From the IMG/VR virus record IMGVR_UViG_3300044846_003573: 64,000 nt of DNA; one strand, written 5' to 3'. Below the pieces are notes generated by a model. It had not been told where the DNA came from. It worked only from the letters and a program-made list of their open reading frames with translations, and ran no database searches. Positions 24,419-62,492 of this stretch are shown here, one piece after another. Origin of the DNA: a virus (lineage: Duplodnaviria; Caudoviricetes). Position numbers and translations under genes: made by a program. Numbering within the stretch: position 1 is the stretch's first letter; each line of letters starts with the position of its first letter.

Positions 24419-24501
24419 AGTCAGGTGGTGTAAGGGTAGACAAACACACGGTAAGGTACTAGAGACTAATTGAGTAACAGGTTCGAGTCCTGTTCTGACT
24501 A
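24419..24501 (+). ncRNA. tRNA-like RNA, AGTCAGG family copy B
   Basis: AGTCAGG/TCTGACT+A, acaggTTCGAGTcctgt. Confidence 0.7.
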
Positions 24502-24667
24502 CTAAAGTACACACTACGCTACCCATTGACCAGCGTCCCAGGGTGTGTCTTTTACGGTGTTGTTCCCTTGAGAAAGGAATAGTTTATGTTCAGGACAAAG
24601 GGTGTAAAAGTGCATTTTTACCGACTTTCACAACACAGAGGACTTCTCATCCTCAACTATTAGTGAA

Positions 24668-24740
24668 CTTCGGTACCCATACCGCTGACGATGGGCTAAG
24701 TAAGATACAATTCCGTGTTGCGGGGAGTAGAATGCCGAAG
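24668..24740 (+). ncRNA. 73-nt structured RNA motif, copy 1
   Basis: Closing stem cttcggta/tgccgaag with two internal hairpins. Paralogous to 25679-25751. Confidence 0.65.
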
Positions 24741-24755
24741 AGCTGGTAGTAACAT

Positions 24756-24822
24756 AGTCAGGTAACTCAATTGGCAGAGCTCCTAACAAGGAAGATTGCA
24801 GGTTCGAATCCTGTTCTGACTA
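24756..24822 (+). ncRNA. tRNA-like RNA, AGTCAGG family copy C
   Basis: Normal D-arm and T-arm; anticodon arm reduced to tcct-aaca-agga. Confidence 0.7.
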
Positions 24823-25190: not shown

Positions 25191-25271
25191 AGTCAGGTGG
25201 CGAATGGTAACGCAGCTCGCGGTGTACACTATAAAGGGGTGACAATGCAGGTTCAAATCCTGTTCTGACTA
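25191..25271 (+). ncRNA. tRNA-like RNA, AGTCAGG family copy E
   Basis: D-arm gcg-aatggtaa-cgc, T-arm gcaggTTCAAATcctgt, oversized anticodon-position loop. Confidence 0.7.
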
Positions 25272-25665: not shown

Positions 25666-25678
25666 CAAAACACATAAA

Positions 25679-25751
25679 CTCAAGTACCCATACTGAGGAC
25701 GGTGGGCTAAGTAATATACAATTCCGTCATGCAGGGAGTAGAATGCTTGAG
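25679..25751 (+). ncRNA. 73-nt structured RNA motif, copy 2
   Basis: Closing stem ctcaagta/tgcttgag, with compensatory changes relative to copy 1. Confidence 0.65.
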
Positions 25752-25767
25752 AGTGTGTTTATTACAC

Positions 25768-26741: not shown

Positions 26742-26805
26742 TATTTGATATAACCAAAAATTAAAAGTATATTTGTAAAAGAAATAAAAACAAAAAAATA
26801 ATAAT

Positions 26806-36709: not shown

Positions 36710-37760
36710 AGCTGTAGGTGTTCCTTCTGATATTGAAATGATGACTTCGGTATTTGCTGAGGTCGTTAAAAAACTGCTCTATTCTTTCAAGTCATCCAAT
36801 GAACCATTAGAGGAGGTTGAGATTGATGTTAAAACCATTGGTGAAAGTGTTATGCGTAGGGGTGAGATTGAAATTGACGGTGATAAATCTTGGAACATGG
36901 TTAAGGAAACTCAAAGCTTTGATGAACAGGAGTGGGGTAAGTTTCCGATGTATAAAAACCCTATTGATATTAAGTTTGAAATCTTTGAAGAGGGTGTTTT
37001 ACAGGCGGTTTATAAAAGTAATCTTAATGTTGATGCGTCACATAGTTTTGATGCTGCTGACTTCAAGAGTGGTGATGTGTTTGATATTAGTATGTTTGAT
37101 TTCCATATTAGAATGGATGAGGAAACGTGGGATAATCTGGAATTGTTATCTCCAACGTTGGAGTCAGTTATTTCACATGAGTTATTACATGCTTATCAGT
37201 TGTATAAGAGATATACTAATAAGGGTCAGATAGGATTTGGTAAGGGACAGGCAACAAATGTATTGGTTAACGCTATTAAAAGTGAGTTCTTACCTGAATG
37301 GAATAATTTTTTACATTTGATTTATTTGACTTTGAACTTTGAGCAAGACGCTCGTATTCCACAGGTGTCACATATTTTAAGAAGGACTAAAATTGATAGT
37401 TATGAAGATTTCATTGAAGCTTTAAGGGGTACATCGGTTTTTAAAGAGATTAAAGAATTAAGAGATTTCTCAGCGGATGATTTATTTGAATCATTAAAAA
37501 AGATTAATAGTCTCCAAGATATGATATTTAAAGAGGTGGCGGTTGAGAAGGCTTATGAATGGATTTTTGAATGGAATGATATTTTGGAAAAGATTGTTGA
37601 ACATACGGTTGCGAATGGTGTTAGTCCATCGAAGATTGACGCAATACCATTGGCCGTTAGAAAAGACCCAAAGAAGTTTTTTGAATACTTTGAAAGAAAG
37701 TTTAAATTCACGGCTAATAATATGTTAAAGAGAGTTTCAAAACTTTATTCTTTAAGATGA
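36666..37760 (+). CDS. HExxH zinc-metallopeptidase-like protein, paralog of 16095-17144
   Basis: ISHELLHAYQ..NFEQDARIPQ, with the same architecture as 16095. Confidence 0.65.
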   Translation: MSVSNKLKIRNLLREAVGVPSDIEMMTSVFAEVVKKLLYSFKSSNEPLEEVEIDVKTIGESVMRRGEIEIDGDKSWNMVKETQSFDEQEWGKFPMYKNPIDIKFEIFEEGVLQAVYKSNLNVDASHSFDAADFKSGDVFDISMFDFHIRMDEETWDNLELLSPTLESVISHELLHAYQLYKRYTNKGQIGFGKGQATNVLVNAIKSEFLPEWNNFLHLIYLTLNFEQDARIPQVSHILRRTKIDSYEDFIEALRGTSVFKEIKELRDFSADDLFESLKKINSLQDMIFKEVAVEKAYEWIFEWNDILEKIVEHTVANGVSPSKIDAIPLAVRKDPKKFFEYFERKFKFTANNMLKRVSKLYSLR

Positions 37761-46940: not shown

Positions 46941-46955
46941 TAAGTTAACTTAATA

Positions 46956-46991
46956 TTGAAAACCCCACTTGAAAAGGTGGGGTTTTTGTTT
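46956..46991 (+). repeat. 36-bp direct repeat (terminator), copy 1
   Basis: ttgaaaaccccacttgaaaaggtggggtttttgttt, identical at 47729-47764. Confidence 0.9.
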
Positions 46992-47025
46992 AACGGTGTA
47001 TTTATAAATAAAAAACTAAAAAATT

Positions 47026-47712
47026 ATGAAAAAAATTATTTTAAGTATTATTATGTCAACTATGTTATTTAGTTGTGATACAAGTACAAAAACTGAAAAT
47101 GCTGAAGACATTAAATCTGATAAAATTGTTAAGATACATGATGGGTCTTTTGCTTTTTGTGGTGCATCGGGAGCGATTCCAACCGGACGAAAGATTGTTG
47201 TTCAAGGTGTAGAATATGATGAGGGTTGTGCAATATGTCCTGTATTATCAGGGCCATCAATCTCCAATTTGGCGATGGAAGGTTTTAGTGAAACCTACGG
47301 AAAGTTTAATGTTAATGAATACTTCCAAAGTCCTGACGGAACCAATAATACTGTTTGGTCGTTATTTTGGTATTATGATTCAACTACGACTATTCCTCAA
47401 TTTAACCCTTCAACTAAAGAATGGGAAATGATGACACCTGTGAATAGAGCTTTTGTTGTGAATACAGATGAACCAAGTACAAGTGAAAGTAATATGTTCG
47501 CAATGCCAGGTATTATTTTTGATACAACATCTACAGGTATTGTGTTGGCAAAAGTATATGGCCCACTTAACGAGGCTGCGGTTCCACTACGTAAAGCAAT
47601 TCCTGTTAAAACAGGTATGACATCAATCACGGCAGCTAAGATTGGATTTCCTTATCCTGTGGGGACACCTGTACCTATTGCTGAGTATAGTAAAGAACTT
47701 CAAAAAAAGTAA
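47026..47712 (+). CDS. lipoprotein
   Basis: Lipobox MLFSC; Cys-containing soluble domain. Confidence 0.8.
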   Translation: MKKIILSIIMSTMLFSCDTSTKTENAEDIKSDKIVKIHDGSFAFCGASGAIPTGRKIVVQGVEYDEGCAICPVLSGPSISNLAMEGFSETYGKFNVNEYFQSPDGTNNTVWSLFWYYDSTTTIPQFNPSTKEWEMMTPVNRAFVVNTDEPSTSESNMFAMPGIIFDTTSTGIVLAKVYGPLNEAAVPLRKAIPVKTGMTSITAAKIGFPYPVGTPVPIAEYSKELQKK

Positions 47713-52808: not shown

Positions 52809-53005
52809 AAAAAGAAACATTTGGACAAATAGACCAAACCAATCCTGTTACAAGAGGTAGTACCGCTTTGGTATATAAAGAAGAAACACTTGAAGATGCA
52901 GCACAATCTTACGCTGTAAATCAAAGAAATAGAACTTCTCATTATATGGGGTTTATTCAAGGTGCTAAATGGATGGAAAGACAACTGAAAAATAAAACTA
53001 AATAA
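52805..53005 (+). CDS. hypothetical protein
   Basis: LEDAAQSY..FIQGAKW small-protein pattern. Confidence 0.65.
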   Translation: MKKETFGQIDQTNPVTRGSTALVYKEETLEDAAQSYAVNQRNRTSHYMGFIQGAKWMERQLKNKTK

Positions 53006-53009
53006 AACT

Positions 53010-53288
53010 ATGAAAAAAATTTTAATATCCCCTTGGACATTGTTCTTCGTGTTCGTCGCAACAGTAATGTCGTTAATTGTAATTGCGTCTTATGATAAAC
53101 AAAATGGTTATTATTATAGTGAGGCTCATTATGTTATAAAGGTTGAGAGACACCGACCACAGAATGTTCATGAAGAGATGAACTTGTATTATGATATCAC
53201 ACTTGAAAATGGTGTGGAGATGAAGTCGTTGAGACAGGTATCTGTTGGTGATACTATCTACTTTGATATGTATAAAGTTGGAAAGTAA
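53010..53288 (+). CDS. membrane-anchored hypothetical protein
   Basis: N-terminal TM helix. Confidence 0.7.
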   Translation: MKKILISPWTLFFVFVATVMSLIVIASYDKQNGYYYSEAHYVIKVERHRPQNVHEEMNLYYDITLENGVEMKSLRQVSVGDTIYFDMYKVGK

Positions 53289-56741: not shown

Positions 56742-57048
56742 TGTAAAATTAGGAAAATGTATTGTGGGGTTTTATTATAAAACTCTATGGACGGATAATA
56801 CTTTGAAGCAAAGTAATTATCGTCATGTTGGTGTCTTTACCTCAAGACACTTGGCTTATGTGTGGTATAAAGATGAAAAGACTGGTGAGAAGAAACGAGA
56901 GTCAACCTATAACTTTGGTTTGGACTTGGTTGTGGCTCGTCTTTGGATATCGTTTAACTTCAACAAGAAGAAAGGAGCTAAACCAAAAGAAGACAAACGA
57001 AAATTCGTTGAACCACTTTCAACTGAAGAAGTTGTTTGGGAACAATGA
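56728..57048 (+). CDS. hypothetical protein
   Basis: 106-aa ORF. Confidence 0.65.
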   Translation: MKLFDVKLGKCIVGFYYKTLWTDNTLKQSNYRHVGVFTSRHLAYVWYKDEKTGEKKRESTYNFGLDLVVARLWISFNFNKKKGAKPKEDKRKFVEPLSTEEVVWEQ

Positions 57049-57272
57049 AAAAGTATATCCACGTCAATCAACACAAGATAAGGTCCAACAAGAAGAATAA
57101 CGAGTTAGAACCTGTTATAACCATTAAAGAAGGTAAAAAGAACACCTATTGTTCCGAGGTTGAAATCTTGGGACCTAGTCGTGTTGTGTATGGTGGTAAT
57201 GAAAAGACATTGTTGTCCTGTGGGGCACGTGTGATAATTGAAACTGAATCGGAAATTAATATCATAAGATAA
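57045..57272 (+). CDS. conserved phage hypothetical protein
   Basis: MKKYIHVNQHKIRSN..EPVITIK..EILGPS..LSCGARV. Confidence 0.75.
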   Translation: MKKYIHVNQHKIRSNKKNNELEPVITIKEGKKNTYCSEVEILGPSRVVYGGNEKTLLSCGARVIIETESEINIIR

Positions 57273-57625
57273 TGGCAACACTTGAATCACAATATTGGAA
57301 GTTTTTGGAAGATAACCCTGGCTCAACTCTAACATTTGAAGAGTGGAATGTTGAGTTAGGTAAACGAATTAAAATGGGTTTTGAAAACAGGAAAAATAAT
57401 TTAGATGAACAACTTGAAGAGTTTGAAATGGTTCGTTATAGAATGGAGGCTGAAGGTTTCCATTACTGTTTCAAACATTACTCATCATTCAAAGAAGTTA
57501 AGGATGAAAAGTTTCACGAATTAAGAAATAAATATTTGGAGATATCTCACGAACTTGAGGAATATGTCCATTCAAAGATTAGCACATTGAGAGATGAAAT
57601 TGATGGATTGGAAGAAATCATTTAA
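57272..57625 (+). CDS. hypothetical protein
   Basis: EAEGFHYCFKHYSSF..DEKFHELR. Confidence 0.7.
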   Translation: MATLESQYWKFLEDNPGSTLTFEEWNVELGKRIKMGFENRKNNLDEQLEEFEMVRYRMEAEGFHYCFKHYSSFKEVKDEKFHELRNKYLEISHELEEYVHSKISTLRDEIDGLEEII

Positions 57626-57638
57626 ATAAGTAACTGAT

Positions 57639-57809
57639 ATGAGAAGTAAAACGTTAGACAGAATCCTTAAAGAAATGGAGAACGACACTTGGCATGTTAA
57701 GTTAAGAAGGTGGTGGAGAGTGAGATTGTGGGTATGGACTTGTAGAACAAGATGGATTTGGGATTTAGAATATGAACGTAATATCTTTAGAAATAAGAAA
57801 AACAAATAA
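57639..57809 (+). CDS. small Trp/Arg-rich protein
   Basis: MRSKTLDRILKEME..KLRRWWRVRLWVW, read by hand. Confidence 0.6.
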   Translation: MRSKTLDRILKEMENDTWHVKLRRWWRVRLWVWTCRTRWIWDLEYERNIFRNKKNK

Positions 57810-57916
57810 AGTTACAGTTTTGGGTGTTGTTGAATTAAATACGTAAAAATACGTATTGGGGGATTATGGAATTAGTTATATATTTGTAAAAGAAATAAAA
57901 ACAAAACTAAACAACT

Positions 57917-58063
57917 ATGTTAGACACAATGATTTATATTTTATTATTCATGCTGGTAGTAATCTTTCCAGTGTCCTTTGTATTATACGTTGCTGTATGG
58001 ACTCCTAAACAGAAGATGAAAGGTCATGCAGGTAGAGGTAAATGTAAATGTTGTAATAACTAA
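57917..58063 (+). CDS. cassette 1: 48-aa membrane protein with C-terminal CxCC
   Basis: MLDTMIYILLFMLVVIFPVSFVLYVAVWTPKQKMKGHAGRGKCKCCNN*. Confidence 0.6.
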   Translation: MLDTMIYILLFMLVVIFPVSFVLYVAVWTPKQKMKGHAGRGKCKCCNN

Positions 58064-58076
58064 AAAATAAATAACT

Positions 58077-58187
58077 ATGGACAGAAGAGAAGGAATGCCT
58101 GTAGAAGCATTAGGACAAATACTATTTGTTATACTCACAATTTGGGGAATAGCTTATGGAGTGTCTTGGCTAATTGAATTAATCTAA
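58077..58187 (+). CDS. cassette 2: 36-aa membrane peptide
   Basis: MDRREGMPVEALGQILFVILTIWGIAYGVSWLIELI*. Confidence 0.6.
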   Translation: MDRREGMPVEALGQILFVILTIWGIAYGVSWLIELI

Positions 58188-58199
58188 AACTAAATAACT

Positions 58200-58301
58200 A
58201 TGGAAAACACCGATTTAAATTCTCAAAGAATTATTCAAGCATTGCGTCAACCAACAAACGAAATTGTTGAAAGCATTTTAATTTCACTAATTACTAAATA
58301 A
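58200..58301 (+). CDS. cassette 3: 33-aa peptide
   Basis: MENTDLNSQRIIQALRQPTNEIVESILISLITK*. Confidence 0.55.
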   Translation: MENTDLNSQRIIQALRQPTNEIVESILISLITK

Positions 58302-58303
58302 CT

Positions 58304-58909
58304 ATGAAAAAACTATTTGTACTAGCTATGGTAAGCCTTTTATGTTTACCTGTATTTTCTCAAACTTCTAACTATTACATTGAAATAGTTAACAATGACT
58401 TTAACAACGATAGTTGTGGAATTATAAATATGAGTATTGACCCTGCTGCTAATTATACAGCTTGTGGTGTAGTAGTAAATGGGGTTGGTATTAAAAAAAG
58501 TGTAACATACCCTTTTACTATGACTGCTAATCACATATTCAATTTTACTCTACATTTTGAAACTACTTGTGGATGTGTCTATGATTTTATAATCTCAGAT
58601 ACAGTAACGTTTGTACCAAATACCACATATGCAAGAGTAATTTTTGCTGATGGGGATGATTGCAATGACTCAAGTACTTTTGTTCTAGGGACAGATGAAT
58701 TAGAAATTACTACGGTTTTAACAATTTATCCTAGCCCAGCAACTGAACAGATAACTTTAAGTAGAATAGGTGATGTGTTAATATATTCATCTAATGGAAA
58801 GTTAGTTAAAAATGTTAGGAATGAGAAAATAATTGATGTTAGTGATTTACCAAGTGGGTTATATCTTGGATTCATTAATGGGAAGAAGTTTAATTTTATT
58901 AAAAAGTAA
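58304..58909 (+). CDS. cassette 4: secreted protein with T9SS type A sorting domain
   Basis: Signal peptide (LPVFSQ); LTIYPSPATEQI..IYSSNGKLV..IDVSDLPSGLYL..FNFIKK. Confidence 0.88.
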   Translation: MKKLFVLAMVSLLCLPVFSQTSNYYIEIVNNDFNNDSCGIINMSIDPAANYTACGVVVNGVGIKKSVTYPFTMTANHIFNFTLHFETTCGCVYDFIISDTVTFVPNTTYARVIFADGDDCNDSSTFVLGTDELEITTVLTIYPSPATEQITLSRIGDVLIYSSNGKLVKNVRNEKIIDVSDLPSGLYLGFINGKKFNFIKK

Positions 58910-58915
58910 ATAATT

Positions 58916-59068
58916 ATGGAAAAGAAAAAAACACTTGAAGATGCTCTTAAAAATTATGTGCAAGGTAAAGACACCGTTGCTAAAAATATACCTGTTTATT
59001 CTGAAAATGGGGAGAAACTATACTTTAATGAGCAAGGCTATTTAATCAAATTGTATCATGAAAACTAA
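58916..59068 (+). CDS. cassette 5: 50-aa protein
   Basis: MEKKKTLEDALKNYVQGK..YHEN*. Confidence 0.6.
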   Translation: MEKKKTLEDALKNYVQGKDTVAKNIPVYSENGEKLYFNEQGYLIKLYHEN

Positions 59069-59074
59069 ATAACT

Positions 59075-59335
59075 ATGGAAAAGAAACAAACTGCGGTTGA
59101 ATGGTTGGTGGAACAACTCGATAAACTTGAATATGAGTATGATGTTGAAGGAATAAGCATATTAGATTTCGATAAAAGAAAAATAGAAATTGAAAACCAA
59201 GCCAAGCAAATGATGAAGGAGCAGATGAAAGATGTGTATCTAACTCACTGTGTTAAATCAGAGCGTTTGAGAAAAATCTTTGAGCAACAATTTGATGATT
59301 TTTACAACGAAACTTACGGACAAACTAAAAACTAA
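59075..59335 (+). CDS. cassette 6: TAVEWL-family small protein
   Basis: MEKKQTAVEWLVEQL..QAKQMMKEQ..FYNETYGQTKN. Confidence 0.75.
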   Translation: MEKKQTAVEWLVEQLDKLEYEYDVEGISILDFDKRKIEIENQAKQMMKEQMKDVYLTHCVKSERLRKIFEQQFDDFYNETYGQTKN

Positions 59336-59341
59336 ATAACT

Positions 59342-59587
59342 ATGGAAAAGAAAGAAACTGCGGTTGAATATCTTGTAGAGCAATTATTTAAAATACACAA
59401 CAATACTACTGATGTTAAAGAAATGAATAGCAAAAGTATTATTGAACAAGCCAAGCAAATGGAGAAGGAGCAACACGAAGAAACTTGGTTTAGTAGTAGA
59501 GATGAAGATATGGGTGATGAATTTAAGGTGGAGCAAAAGTCATTTGAGGACTACTACAACGAAACTTATGGAGAAACTAAAAACTAA
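59342..59587 (+). CDS. cassette 7: TAVEWL-family paralog
   Basis: MEKKETAVEYLVEQL..QAKQMEKEQ..YYNETYGETKN. Confidence 0.75.
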   Translation: MEKKETAVEYLVEQLFKIHNNTTDVKEMNSKSIIEQAKQMEKEQHEETWFSSRDEDMGDEFKVEQKSFEDYYNETYGETKN

Positions 59588-59593
59588 ATAACT

Positions 59594-59794
59594 ATGGAAA
59601 ACCTCACAGTTTATTCTACAAATGGTAATCTTATTGAACATTCAAAACCTATCGTTACTATTGAGACGGAAGTAGAAATTGCAGGGCAAGGAGAACTACC
59701 AATTAAAATAATTGCAGATTTTACAGATATTCCTGAGCATAAGCATGAGCTGTTTTTTCAAGCATTCAAAATGATGTATAATATTAAATTTTAA
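59594..59794 (+). CDS. cassette 8: hypothetical protein
   Basis: 66-aa ORF between repeats. Confidence 0.65.
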   Translation: MENLTVYSTNGNLIEHSKPIVTIETEVEIAGQGELPIKIIADFTDIPEHKHELFFQAFKMMYNIKF

Positions 59795-59805
59795 ACTAAA
59801 AAACT

Positions 59806-60408
59806 ATGAAAAAACTATTTGTATTAGCTGTAGCAAGTCTTTTATGGCTTCCCGTATTTTCTCAAACAACATATTACATTAATATTGTTAATAGTGACTT
59901 CAACAATGATAGTTGTGGAATCATTAACACCACAATTGACCCTCCTGGGGATTGGATAGCATGTGGTGTATTAGTAAATGGGGTTGTGTTTCAAAAAAGT
60001 GTAACCTATTCGTATAACGTAACATCTGACCATATATTTAATTCTACTTTACACATTGAAACCACTTGTGGATGTGTCTATGATTTTACAATCACCGATA
60101 CTGTGTTATTCGCATTGTTAAATAGCCATTATACTAGAATAATTTTCATTGATGGAAATGATTGCACTGATTATGGTACAATTGTTTTAGGTGTGGATGA
60201 ATTAACTAGTGATGCTTTAACAGTTTATCCAAATCCAGCAAATAGTCAAATAACTTTAAGTAAGATAGGTGATGTGTTAATATATTCATCTAATGGACGG
60301 TTGATTAAGACTATTAAAAATAAGAAGGTAATTGATGTTAGTGATTTACCAAGTGGGTTATATCTTGGGTTCATTAATGGAGAGAAGTTTAACTTTATTA
60401 AAAACTAA
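59806..60408 (+). CDS. cassette 9: secreted T9SS type A protein, paralog of 58304-58909
   Basis: Near-identical signal peptide and C-terminal domain, with a diverged middle. Confidence 0.88.
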   Translation: MKKLFVLAVASLLWLPVFSQTTYYINIVNSDFNNDSCGIINTTIDPPGDWIACGVLVNGVVFQKSVTYSYNVTSDHIFNSTLHIETTCGCVYDFTITDTVLFALLNSHYTRIIFIDGNDCTDYGTIVLGVDELTSDALTVYPNPANSQITLSKIGDVLIYSSNGRLIKTIKNKKVIDVSDLPSGLYLGFINGEKFNFIKN

Positions 60409-60414
60409 ATAACT

Positions 60415-60513
60415 ATGAATATTAAAAGAAAGATTTTAACATCAATTTTTAATTGGTTGGGAAAAAGATGGGATGACTATAATGAATCATTCAAAAACGG
60501 ATTTAATTATTAA
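60415..60513 (+). CDS. cassette 10: 32-aa peptide
   Basis: MNIKRKILTSIFNWLGKRWDDYNESFKNGFNY*. Confidence 0.55.
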   Translation: MNIKRKILTSIFNWLGKRWDDYNESFKNGFNY

Positions 60514-60518
60514 AAATT

Positions 60519-60809
60519 ATGAATAACGAAATTGAAATAAAACCAGTATCCGAAATGGAAGCTGACACAAGACGACTTTGTGAAATACGATTTGATTGTA
60601 TGGTAACAATGCATGATGCTGCGTTTAAAAAGTATAAGGGAATGTGGGGTCAAGAAAACCAATCAAAGAAACCACAATGGTTTAAGTCCAACACTACTCT
60701 CACATTAGAGTTTATTAAAGATGCTGAACCTCAACTTATAGGTGAGCACATCAAACAAATGTTTCATCAATTAGAACAAACAATAGAACAATATGAATCT
60801 GTCAGATAA
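60519..60809 (+). CDS. hypothetical protein
   Basis: 96-aa ORF. Confidence 0.7.
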   Translation: MNNEIEIKPVSEMEADTRRLCEIRFDCMVTMHDAAFKKYKGMWGQENQSKKPQWFKSNTTLTLEFIKDAEPQLIGEHIKQMFHQLEQTIEQYESVR

Positions 60810-61623
60810 ATACTATTTACAGAACATTCAAAAAATTATGTCAGAAGGTTCTTGGGATGAAAATCCTAGACCAAAATATTATGATGGAGTGACGGCTCAT
60901 TCAAAATTCATCACAGGAGTTTTTGAAGAGTATGATATCTCAAAAGGAGAGTTCCCAATACCAACATTAAGAAATACTGCAATAAAAACAGGTATTAAAG
61001 AAATATTATGGATTTATCAAAAACAAACTTCATCATTACGAGTTGCTCGTGAAATGGGAATTAATTGGTGGGAAGATTGGAACGTAGGTGATGATACTAT
61101 TGGTCAGAGATATGGAGCAACTATTGGTAGATATAATTTAATTGATAGATTATTAAAGGGTTTGATTGACGACCCATTTGGAAGAAGACATATAATCAAT
61201 ATGTTCCAATATCACGATTTGTTTGAAACAAATGGATTATACCCTTGTGCTTATGAAACATTGTGGTCAGTTAGAAAAGGTGACGATGGATTGATACTTG
61301 ATATGACATTGATTCAGAGAAGTAATGATTTTATTACCGCTGGTTATATTAACAAAATACAATACACCGCACTTTTAATGATGGTTGCAGGTCATTGTAA
61401 CTATAAAGTTGGTAAGTTTTGTCATTTAGTTCAGAACCTACACATATATGATAGACATTTTGATGCGGTTGCCGAATTATTAAACAAGGAGCCGTTAGAC
61501 ATCCAACCAAAAATAATTTTGAAAGAAAACAAAAACTTTTATGATTATACAATTGATGATTTTGAAATTGTTGGAATTGAAGGTATTACCAAAATAAATT
61601 CAAAATTAGAGTTAGCAATTTAA
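60793..61623 (+). CDS. thyA: thymidylate synthase
   Basis: GQRYG, RRHII, LYPCAY (catalytic Cys), QRSND, NLHIYDRH. Confidence 0.95.
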   Translation: MNLSDKYYLQNIQKIMSEGSWDENPRPKYYDGVTAHSKFITGVFEEYDISKGEFPIPTLRNTAIKTGIKEILWIYQKQTSSLRVAREMGINWWEDWNVGDDTIGQRYGATIGRYNLIDRLLKGLIDDPFGRRHIINMFQYHDLFETNGLYPCAYETLWSVRKGDDGLILDMTLIQRSNDFITAGYINKIQYTALLMMVAGHCNYKVGKFCHLVQNLHIYDRHFDAVAELLNKEPLDIQPKIILKENKNFYDYTIDDFEIVGIEGITKINSKLELAI

Positions 61624-61667
61624 GATTTCCGTTGGTTTCCATATATTTATATAATATACGGAAACCT

Positions 61668-62492
61668 ATGGATTATTTAAAAATTTACAATAGTTTAGTT
61701 GAGAAAGGAAAAAACAGAAAACTAACAGGTTACACTGAAACTCATCATATTATTCCTAAATGTGTCGGTGGGACTAACGATAAATGGAATTTAGTTAAAC
61801 TAACGGCGAGAGAACATTTTATATGTCACTTATTATTATGTGAAATTTACCCCGAAAATATGAAATTAAGATTCGCATTATGGAATATGTGTAATGTTAA
61901 AAGAAACTATCAAAATAGATTTAAAGTTAACTCAAGATTATATGATTTAATTAGGAAAGAGTATTCAATAAATGTTTCAGGTGTTAACAATCCTAGATTT
62001 GGTAAAAAATTAACAGATGAACAAAAAAATCAAATCAGTTTGTCAAGGATTGGTAAATATGGAGGTGAAAAAAATTCATTTTACGGTAAAAAACATAGTG
62101 AAAGAACTAAAGAAATATTAAGAAAAAAAAGTTCAGAAAAAAAACATACCGAAGAAGCTAAAGAAAAAATGTCAATCTCACATAAACATAAATTATGGTA
62201 TTTTAATGACAATGGAAAACATTTACGAACATTCCCTGATGACCCAAGAATAATTAATGAAGGGTGGAAAAAAGGTAGAATTGGTGGTAAAGAACTATCA
62301 AGATTGGCGAATGAAAAAAGAAAAGAAAAATACTCAATTATTGAACCCCCAAAACCAAATTCAAAAAAGTGTGTCGTTGATGATTTGACTTTTGACTCAG
62401 CGGTTGAAGCTGCGAAACACTTTAATATCCCAGATAGTACTGTTAGAGACAGAATTAGAAATAAAAACTTCCCAAATTGGAGATGGGTTTGA
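61668..62492 (+). CDS. HNH homing endonuclease with NUMOD3-like repeats
   Basis: ETHHIIPKCVGGTNDKWNLVKLTAREHFICHLLL; NSFYGKKHSE; located directly after thyA. Confidence 0.92.
   Translation: MDYLKIYNSLVEKGKNRKLTGYTETHHIIPKCVGGTNDKWNLVKLTAREHFICHLLLCEIYPENMKLRFALWNMCNVKRNYQNRFKVNSRLYDLIRKEYSINVSGVNNPRFGKKLTDEQKNQISLSRIGKYGGEKNSFYGKKHSERTKEILRKKSSEKKHTEEAKEKMSISHKHKLWYFNDNGKHLRTFPDDPRIINEGWKKGRIGGKELSRLANEKRKEKYSIIEPPKPNSKKCVVDDLTFDSAVEAAKHFNIPDSTVRDRIRNKNFPNWRWV

Follow-up and report, generated by a model that had tools for sequence, protein, structure and literature searches.

A short stop-start repeat at the gene junctions of an accessory island in a lake-water phage

What keeps one short sequence in front of every gene of a phage gene array: translation, recombination, or both? 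The question is raised by a 64,000-nucleotide stretch of DNA from the IMG/VR virus record IMGVR_UViG_3300044846_003573 (Duplodnaviria; Caudoviricetes), which was analysed at its full length and is referred to here as the window. Within 2.5 kb of this stretch (57903-60417), a 17-mer, AAAACTAAATAACTATG, occurs in ten + strand copies, one before each of ten open reading frames (ORFs) that form an accessory island of small genes, mostly orphans. An earlier note on this DNA had proposed that these genes are excised, duplicated and shuffled as units by recombination at the repeat, on an integron-like platform. The first part of this proposal stands: genes of the array have been gained, lost, duplicated, reordered and exchanged as units, with homology breakpoints at the junction repeat. 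The second part does not, and the motif is probably a stop-restart translation junction that doubles as a short-homology crossover site.

Anatomy and distribution of the junction repeat

A motif scan bears out the arrangement first described, in which ten ORFs of 32-201 aa each follow the repeat, five copies being exact and five carrying one or two mismatches (Table 1). Dinucleotide-preserving shuffles give a chance expectation of 0.08 copies per window, and 0/100 shuffles reached the 11 copies that are counted when a looser one at 47012-47028 is included. Each array copy ends in the ATG of its ORF, and the preceding ORFs terminate within or flush against the repeat. With the A of the ATG numbered 0, the upstream stop is a TAA at -9 in five cases, which gives C-terminal tails ending in N (KN, EN), and lies at -16, -15, -14 and -5 once each; the repeat thus supplies the last codons and stop of one gene as well as the next ATG, as had been claimed. 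An upstream stop between -16 and -5 is found at 66/81 unique junctions, and all three frames are closed within 21 nt at 56% of junctions, vs 8% of other window genes. The conserved block has sharp limits at -14 and +2, with weaker conservation from -20 to -15. The resulting adaptor of 17-21 nt comprises an A tract (-14 to -11), a TAA at -9, an A at -6, a TAA from -5 to -3 and the ATG, often with a third TAA at -16. No inverted repeat or dyad symmetry was found at any junction, and the TAnnTTTG promoter box is absent from every one of them. The junction RNA folds with -0.7 to -3.9 kcal/mol, all ten being weaker than shuffles (z +0.4 to +2.1), and an Rfam search recognized no known RNA family in the array.

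The source is a freshwater (lake-water) giant phage whose genome probably measures ~300 kb, the size estimated by CheckV for the related IMG/VR record G001 (86 kb, completeness 29%). The window is 82.6% colinear with G001, mostly at 92-97% identity and in a few blocks at 80-88%. It encodes 23 tRNA genes, has 33% G+C and contains nearly no Shine-Dalgarno (SD) motifs; SD-like motifs precede 0-5% of gene starts in the window and in the phage genomes G002, G003 and G005. The host is probably Flavobacterium or a related Bacteroidota, which agrees with the promoter type, the proteins addressed to the type IX secretion system (T9SS) and the SD-less starts. Blastn of the region against a phage GenBank collection gave no match. 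However, the locus is present in at least 22 lake-water metagenome runs and independent lake-metagenome contigs cross most junctions with 0 differences, so the array is no assembly artefact.

Among the 112 called genes of the window, the 17-mer is found only at the array genes and at two looser cases. Both of the latter had been pointed out in the earlier note and are confirmed, the second (52994-53012) with an AA insertion. Each of them lies just downstream of a site where G001 has an extra gene block of 0.7-0.8 kb, and these blocks (window points 46943-46960 and 52809-52873) carry their own promoter or terminator. When ORF starts are scored against the 14 nt before the ATG, the distribution is bimodal, the bulk matching at 3-8/14 positions and array genes at 11-14/14; this holds for the window, G001, G002, G003, G005 and G006. 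The 17-mer was counted in the 64-kb window, in the 86-kb G001 fragment and in a further four phage genomes, complete or nearly so (63, 65, 84 and 120 kb), and each of these four has 3-7 copies in one or two clusters. Rather than being spread uniformly, the repeat thus marks a few clustered genes per genome and is no generic start context.

Exchange of cassettes between phages

The closest relatives differ in the order and content of their cassettes. In G001, the flanks are 93-98% identical to those of the window and the array is headed by the same stem-loop, promoter and leader, with a different interior: homology extends as far as the G in the ATG of the first junction and restarts 5 nt before the last junction. 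Cassette 10 is the only one with nucleotide-level homology in G001 (97.6% nt), whose array also holds a distant 134-aa member of the TAVEW family, to which cassettes 6 and 7 belong. A third arrangement is present on contig L091, with flanks 90-96% identical, and here, too, homology with the window ends at the first junction's ATG. A motif-blind search via the conserved downstream gene recovered 34 orthologous loci, only three of which (the window, G001 and L091) have promoter-plus-17-mer arrays, all three different. At most of the 34, the anchors enclose nothing (an empty site) or one to three other genes. In empty-site relatives, the downstream anchor follows directly after the upstream anchors, and comparison with one of them sets the borders of the island, the first within the upstream gene, very close to its 3′ end, and the second directly ahead of the downstream gene's ATG. 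The G001 array also contains, at L009:2659-2730, a 20-codon ORF (MTPKEQADKWFNKFGRDTKN, then a stop) in which the beginning of an MTPKEKAE-family gene seems to run into a TAVEW-type tail and the junction, perhaps left behind when a deletion took place between short repeats.

The same behaviour extends to unrelated phages. An exact-match scan of IMG/VR returned more than 118 contigs, ~21 of which have arrays of 3-8 copies. In a comparison of 54 distinct junctions, the cassettes fell into at least 14 families plus orphans, and families recur in differing orders on at least two unrelated backbones. Family F12, for example, has three different neighbours on each side, and F0 (TAVEW) has eight upstream and five downstream neighbour kinds. 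When arrays are compared by blastn, 24-26% of the ends of homology blocks are located from -25 to +10 relative to a junction ATG, vs 4.2% for random positions, and nearly all block ends near a junction lie exactly at motif edges. Among 137 window ORFs, homologues were found in the complete 120-kb genome G002 for three array cassettes only and in the complete 84-kb genome G003 for one cassette only; DNA-level matches to these genomes are likewise limited to these cassettes, bar a short element in the tRNA region. Cassette 8 (59594) is 96% identical in nucleotides and 98.5% in amino acids in the otherwise unrelated G003, and a three-way alignment of this cassette shows identity from the upstream junction to a few bases past the downstream ATG.

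Assembled contigs of four other lake runs contain joints between distant points of the window. One connects the ATG of the first junction with a point shortly ahead of the eighth (57919>59572), and a second is 59802>60511. A third, found in two runs, leads from the ATG of repeat 8 back to the first base of repeat 6 (59596>59061) and could reflect a circle, a tandem duplication or a different order of genes in another phage. The fourth (59214>59464; three runs) is a hybrid of the two TAVEW paralogues at a shared 9-nt box, and is present in one run at 40x vs ~10x for the flanks. The contigs may stem from other phages rather than from variants of the window phage; in either case, the same pieces occur naturally in other combinations.

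The TAVEW genes exchange at two short boxes, one comprising the junction and the 5′ MEKKQTAVEW segment, the other the internal QAKQMEKEQ segment (59201-59223 and 59450-59472), and are thus mosaics of halves. The 5′ half of cassette 6 is 95% identical to a cassette of G002. Crossovers at short boxes other than the junction are the behaviour expected of general homology-guided exchange.

Could local tandem duplication of a single gene and its start site, followed by divergence, have been the sole source of the array? The two paralogue pairs pointed out earlier are real, with 70% identity between the proteins at 58304 and 59806 and 43% between the TAVEW proteins at 59075 and 59342, and the hybrid joint is of the kind left by unequal crossover between paralogues. 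However, most cassettes are mutually unrelated, and the same cassettes recur elsewhere in a different order, on different backbones and in the genomes of unrelated phages. As the sole cause, tandem duplication is contradicted by these observations and its probability is close to negligible; it survives as one process acting at the repeat.

The integron-like platform proposed in the earlier note, with a dedicated recombinase acting at the 17-mer, can be judged from the same comparisons. As in integrons and in clusters of attC sites lacking integron-integrases (CALIN), a promoter, here a predicted one, is followed by single-gene cassettes with no promoter box of their own; a repeat separates each cassette from the next, and the set of cassettes and their order vary through gain, loss and rearrangement. 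The attC sites at the cassette boundaries of integrons are hairpin-forming imperfect inverted repeats ~55-140 nt long. In contrast, the junctions described here measure 17-21 nt and have neither inverted repeat nor hairpin. Neither Phage_integrase (PF00589; control positive in 14/14 reference genomes) nor Resolvase (PF00239; control positive in 12/14) was found in five array-bearing records, G001, G002, G003, G005 and G006, four of which are complete or nearly so. Arrays on the second backbone are flanked by genes for a DnaA-type helix-turn-helix protein and unknown proteins, with no recognizable nuclease or recombinase, and the crossovers at unrelated internal boxes also argue against a site-specific enzyme. 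Nothing in these five records or at the junctions points to site-specific chemistry, and the integron reading was rejected as very improbable.

Translation at the junctions

In Flavobacterium johnsoniae, A at -3, -6, -12 and -13 together with an A run from -14 to -11 raises initiation, and weak structure helps (Baez et al. 2019, PMC6847099). All of these adenines are present in the 17-mer, which lacks an SD sequence and would therefore be no less a translation signal than a recombination site; the caveat in the earlier note that its conservation may be partly translational was well placed. The likeness extends to the weak structure of the junctions. In contrast to the degenerate host regions, however, the array presents a fixed 17-mer at successive cistrons, with built-in stops. 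A scan of bacterial genomes gave at least 120 exact 17-mer matches. Among the 80 titled matches, an ORF of 50 aa or more begins at the ATG in 55/59 Bacteroidota vs 2/21 others. An ammonium transporter gene follows in 42/120 matches, all titled ones being from Flavobacterium (e.g., L147:2071-3400, among L145-L259); one such gene was checked against Pfam (Ammonium_transp, E 1e-109). At these loci, the leader upstream of the motif is conserved too; a favourable start that came into use by chance, or a common target of regulation, may lie behind this. The supplements of Baez et al. (PMC6847099) list neither the ammonium transporter nor the motif.

A second junction repeat, GGAGGTGAnAAATGA, combines a perfect SD sequence with overlapping stop and start codons and leaves GGEK or GGDK tails. 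It joins TAVEW and MTPKEKAE cassettes in more distant relatives of the same locus (L277, L286, L271 and L284); sites lie at L286:5393-6000, L277:4693-4880 and L271:1611-1625. Apart from this junction, the contigs lack SD motifs, and their promoters are of the Bacteroidota type; such a junction is odd for ribosomes that ignore SD sequences. In the TAVEW family (92 clusters, all hypothetical), the tail following YYNETYG is GGTK in 20 clusters, GGQDE-like in ~15, GGNNE in 9 and E/QTKN in 5. The last residues of TAVEW proteins therefore seem dictated by the junction of each lineage, and these tail classes support the notion of interchangeable junction adaptors.

Might the repeat be a translation signal only, kept by selection for expression, with turnover arising from illegitimate recombination and selection for intact genes? 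It matches all determinants of Baez et al., is unstructured and marks true Bacteroidota gene starts. Since the genes abut the repeat, viable breakpoints must fall within it, and selection for viable products would place the surviving breakpoints there even if breaks were random. This is the first of several points that weigh against a junction with a dual role. RecA, ERF and RecT family proteins were not found in the five array-bearing records, so host RecA or an unrecognized phage protein has to be assumed. The conservation of C-10, C-2 and T-1 (88-98%) is inflated because arrays were first collected by exact 17-mer, and known initiation determinants do not account for the invariant C-10 or the CT at -2/-1. 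Scored with a crude matrix from 191 Flavobacterium gene starts, the junctions rank at the 62nd-82nd percentile and would appear to be good, not exceptional, starts for such a host. Finally, the SD-type junction of otherwise SD-less relatives implies that a junction repeat need not be a host-optimal start. The last three observations also weigh against a repeat that serves translation alone: the conserved C and T positions, even allowing for ascertainment, have no known translational role, the rank in the crude matrix is moderate, and related SD-less phages employ an SD-type repeat. Moreover, array genes alone carry the repeat, with bimodal start scores and more than 100 other genes of the phage lacking it, and exchanges occur at the internal TAVEW boxes too. 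A purely translational role is therefore considered unlikely.

Somewhat less likely again is that the repeat serves as the site of a specific factor, be it a RegA-like repressor acting on the translation of early genes, an RNA-processing enzyme, a phage RNA polymerase recognizing it as a promoter, or a site-specific nuclease that stimulates exchange. Such a factor would explain why all 17 positions are conserved, including those not needed for initiation. A host factor would fit the presence of the 17-mer before an ammonium transporter in 42 bacterial genomes, and the window contains a gene for a homing endonuclease 1.2 kb further downstream. However, the repeat is common to phages of 63 to ~300 kb with no other shared genes, which makes a phage-encoded factor unlikely, and no known RNA family matches the region. 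A search for RegA (PF01818) gave no match in the five records, nor did it in control genomes.

The reading of the motif as a stop-restart junction that doubles as a crossover site would have the island work as follows. A host-type promoter behind a small stem-loop would drive one polycistronic message of ten genes. On the RNA, the adaptor would end the upstream ORF in two or three frames and offer the next start in an unstructured, adenine-marked context favoured by SD-blind Bacteroidia ribosomes, so any gene inserted at an adaptor would be expressed. On the DNA, the adaptor, present at every junction and in other phages of the same host, would be the place where short-homology recombination yields viable products. 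Owing to this double job, a single gene could be lost, copied, moved to another place in the order or handed to an unrelated phage as a cassette ready for expression. A more far-reaching version, in which the 17-21-mer is an evolved plug-and-play adaptor selected for exchangeability itself, possibly with an unrecognized dedicated enzyme, and supports a community-wide exchange network of unrelated Bacteroidota phages (63 to ~300 kb), with GGAGGTGAnAAATGA defining a separate pool, is conceivable but doubtful.

The island, its surroundings and related systems

Table 1. Coordinates of the island and its anchor genes in the window
Feature	Position	Strand	Basis
Upstream anchor genes (117 aa, 56 aa), conserved backbone	57272-57809	+	
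8-bp inverted repeat AATACGTA-N4-TACGTATT, island head	57838-57857	+	
Predicted -7 promoter box TATATTTG (57879-57886) and A-rich leader	57879-57902	+	consensus match
Junction repeat 1, 1 mismatch; leader and start of first cassette	57903-57919	+	
Cassette 1, 48 aa membrane peptide, KCKCC tail, family F2; heads arrays on another phage backbone too	57917-58063	+	
Junction repeat 2, 1 mismatch	58063-58079	+	
Cassette 2, 36 aa, orphan	58077-58187	+	
Junction repeat 3, exact	58186-58202	+	
Cassette 3, 33 aa, orphan	58200-58301	+	
Junction repeat 4, 2 mismatches	58290-58306	+	
Cassette 4, 201 aa, signal peptide and T9SS C-terminal sorting domain	58304-58909	+	
Junction repeat 5, 2 mismatches	58902-58918	+	
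Cassette 5, 50 aa	58916-59068	+	
Junction repeat 6, exact	59061-59077	+	
Cassette 6, 86 aa, TAVEW family (F0)	59075-59335	+	
Internal conserved box (QAKQM...) of cassette 6, second crossover point	59201-59223	+	homology blocks end here
Junction repeat 7, exact	59328-59344	+	
Cassette 7, 81 aa, TAVEW family paralogue	59342-59587	+	
Internal conserved box of cassette 7, partner of 59201-59223	59450-59472	+	
Junction repeat 8, exact	59580-59596	+	
Cassette 8, 66 aa, family F12	59594-59794	+	
Junction repeat 9, 2 mismatches	59792-59808	+	
Cassette 9, 200 aa, second T9SS-cargo paralogue	59806-60408	+	
Junction repeat 10, exact	60401-60417	+	
Cassette 10, 32 aa, family F29	60415-60513	+	
Downstream anchor gene (96 aa), conserved	60519-60809	+	

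The -7 promoter consensus of Bacteroidota is TAnnTTTG. The box TATATTTG is its sole + strand match within 56917-58675 and is the predicted Bacteroidota-type promoter of the array, in keeping with the single promoter originally assigned to it; its activity is deduced from the consensus. The 24-mer comprising promoter and leader (57879-57902) is repeated exactly at 26768-26791. Stem-loop and promoter likewise head the arrays of G001 and L091, as well as another inserted gene block in G001 (64400-64470). Stem-loop (AATACGTA-N4-TACGTATT), TATATTTG and A-rich leader recur as a regulatory cassette (window 57838-57902 and 26768-26791; G001 64400-64470 and 37157-37187) that heads gene blocks found in only one of the two relatives. 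Further TAnnTTTG boxes lie 4-6 nt before the next ATG in the window (14519, 23023, 29102, 35978, 48802, 51735 and 53301); transcripts starting from these would be leaderless or nearly so, unlike the array message with its 24-nt leader.

Pfam and PHROGs searches of the cassettes found nothing beyond two T9SS sorting domains. Both proteins of the 58304/59806 pair carry such a domain (Por_Secre_tail, E 3e-9 and 5e-10, respectively, above the Pfam cut-off). The predicted structure of the cassette 6 TAVEW protein is a three-helix fold (predicted local distance difference test score, pLDDT, 89), for which no significant PDB match was obtained. The N-terminus of the cassette 5 product (MEKKQTLEE...) resembles that of a 49-aa cassette of L039, although the two did not cluster as one family.

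Other differences between phages lie outside the island. A thymidylate synthase gene (276 aa) and an adjoining homing-endonuclease gene (61668-62492, phrog_655) occupy window positions 60793-62492. They show no resemblance in DNA sequence to the gene for a 366-aa thymidylate synthase found at the same place in G001, where the flanks are 94% identical; the difference amounts to an allele replacement beside a homing endonuclease. An element of ~100 nt (24655-24763 and 25675-25753) is 83-89% identical to positions 73546-73654 of the otherwise unrelated G003. Three tRNA-like sequences (24419-24501, 24756-24822 and 25191-25271) score above the Rfam tRNA threshold and were not reported by ARAGORN.

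A literature search for prior descriptions found two related concepts, PeSLs and linkers, and did not find this motif or SD-less junction arrays. PeSLs are repeats of a promoter and a stem-loop that bound orphan genes in hyperplastic regions of T4-type phages, where they have been linked to modular shuffling and mini-circles (Arbiol et al. 2010, PMC2839356; PMC4122927). Like these, the junction repeats stand before orphan genes in a hyperplastic region, bound indels and replacements between close relatives, and are proposed to undergo homologous exchange, the genes travelling with their expression signals. By this analogy, the stem-loop and promoter at the island head are likely the PeSL counterpart in a Bacteroidota phage. 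The junction 17-mer, in contrast, is probably a translational element and is devoid of promoter and stem-loop. At 17-21 nt it is five times shorter than the ~100 bp of a PeSL, it is internal to one operon with overlapping stop and start codons, and it suits SD-less Bacteroidia ribosomes and is common to phages without other shared genes. In addition, mini-circles have been shown for PeSLs, whereas the array described here is known from assembled contigs.

The modular theory of phage evolution invokes short conserved boundary (“linker”) sequences (summarized in PMC3029335). As expected of linkers, the junction repeat is a short sequence at module boundaries of dissimilar phages with which homology breakpoints coincide. 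It differs in being one defined sequence, present at nearly every array boundary and with a probable second function, translation. The array is thus a variant on PeSL and linker-mediated modular shuffling.

It bears on an old argument about phage mosaics, namely whether these arise by homologous exchange at conserved linkers or by random breakage followed by selection. Linkers are rarely identifiable, and the array provides a defined, recurring one with a probable second function, which makes the question testable. It also shows how phages of SD-blind hosts may express long operons of small genes. Finally, the 17-mer can serve as a search key for fast-evolving accessory genes, among which are the two encoding T9SS-addressed proteins; array genes are likely a place to look for host-takeover and anti-defence functions.

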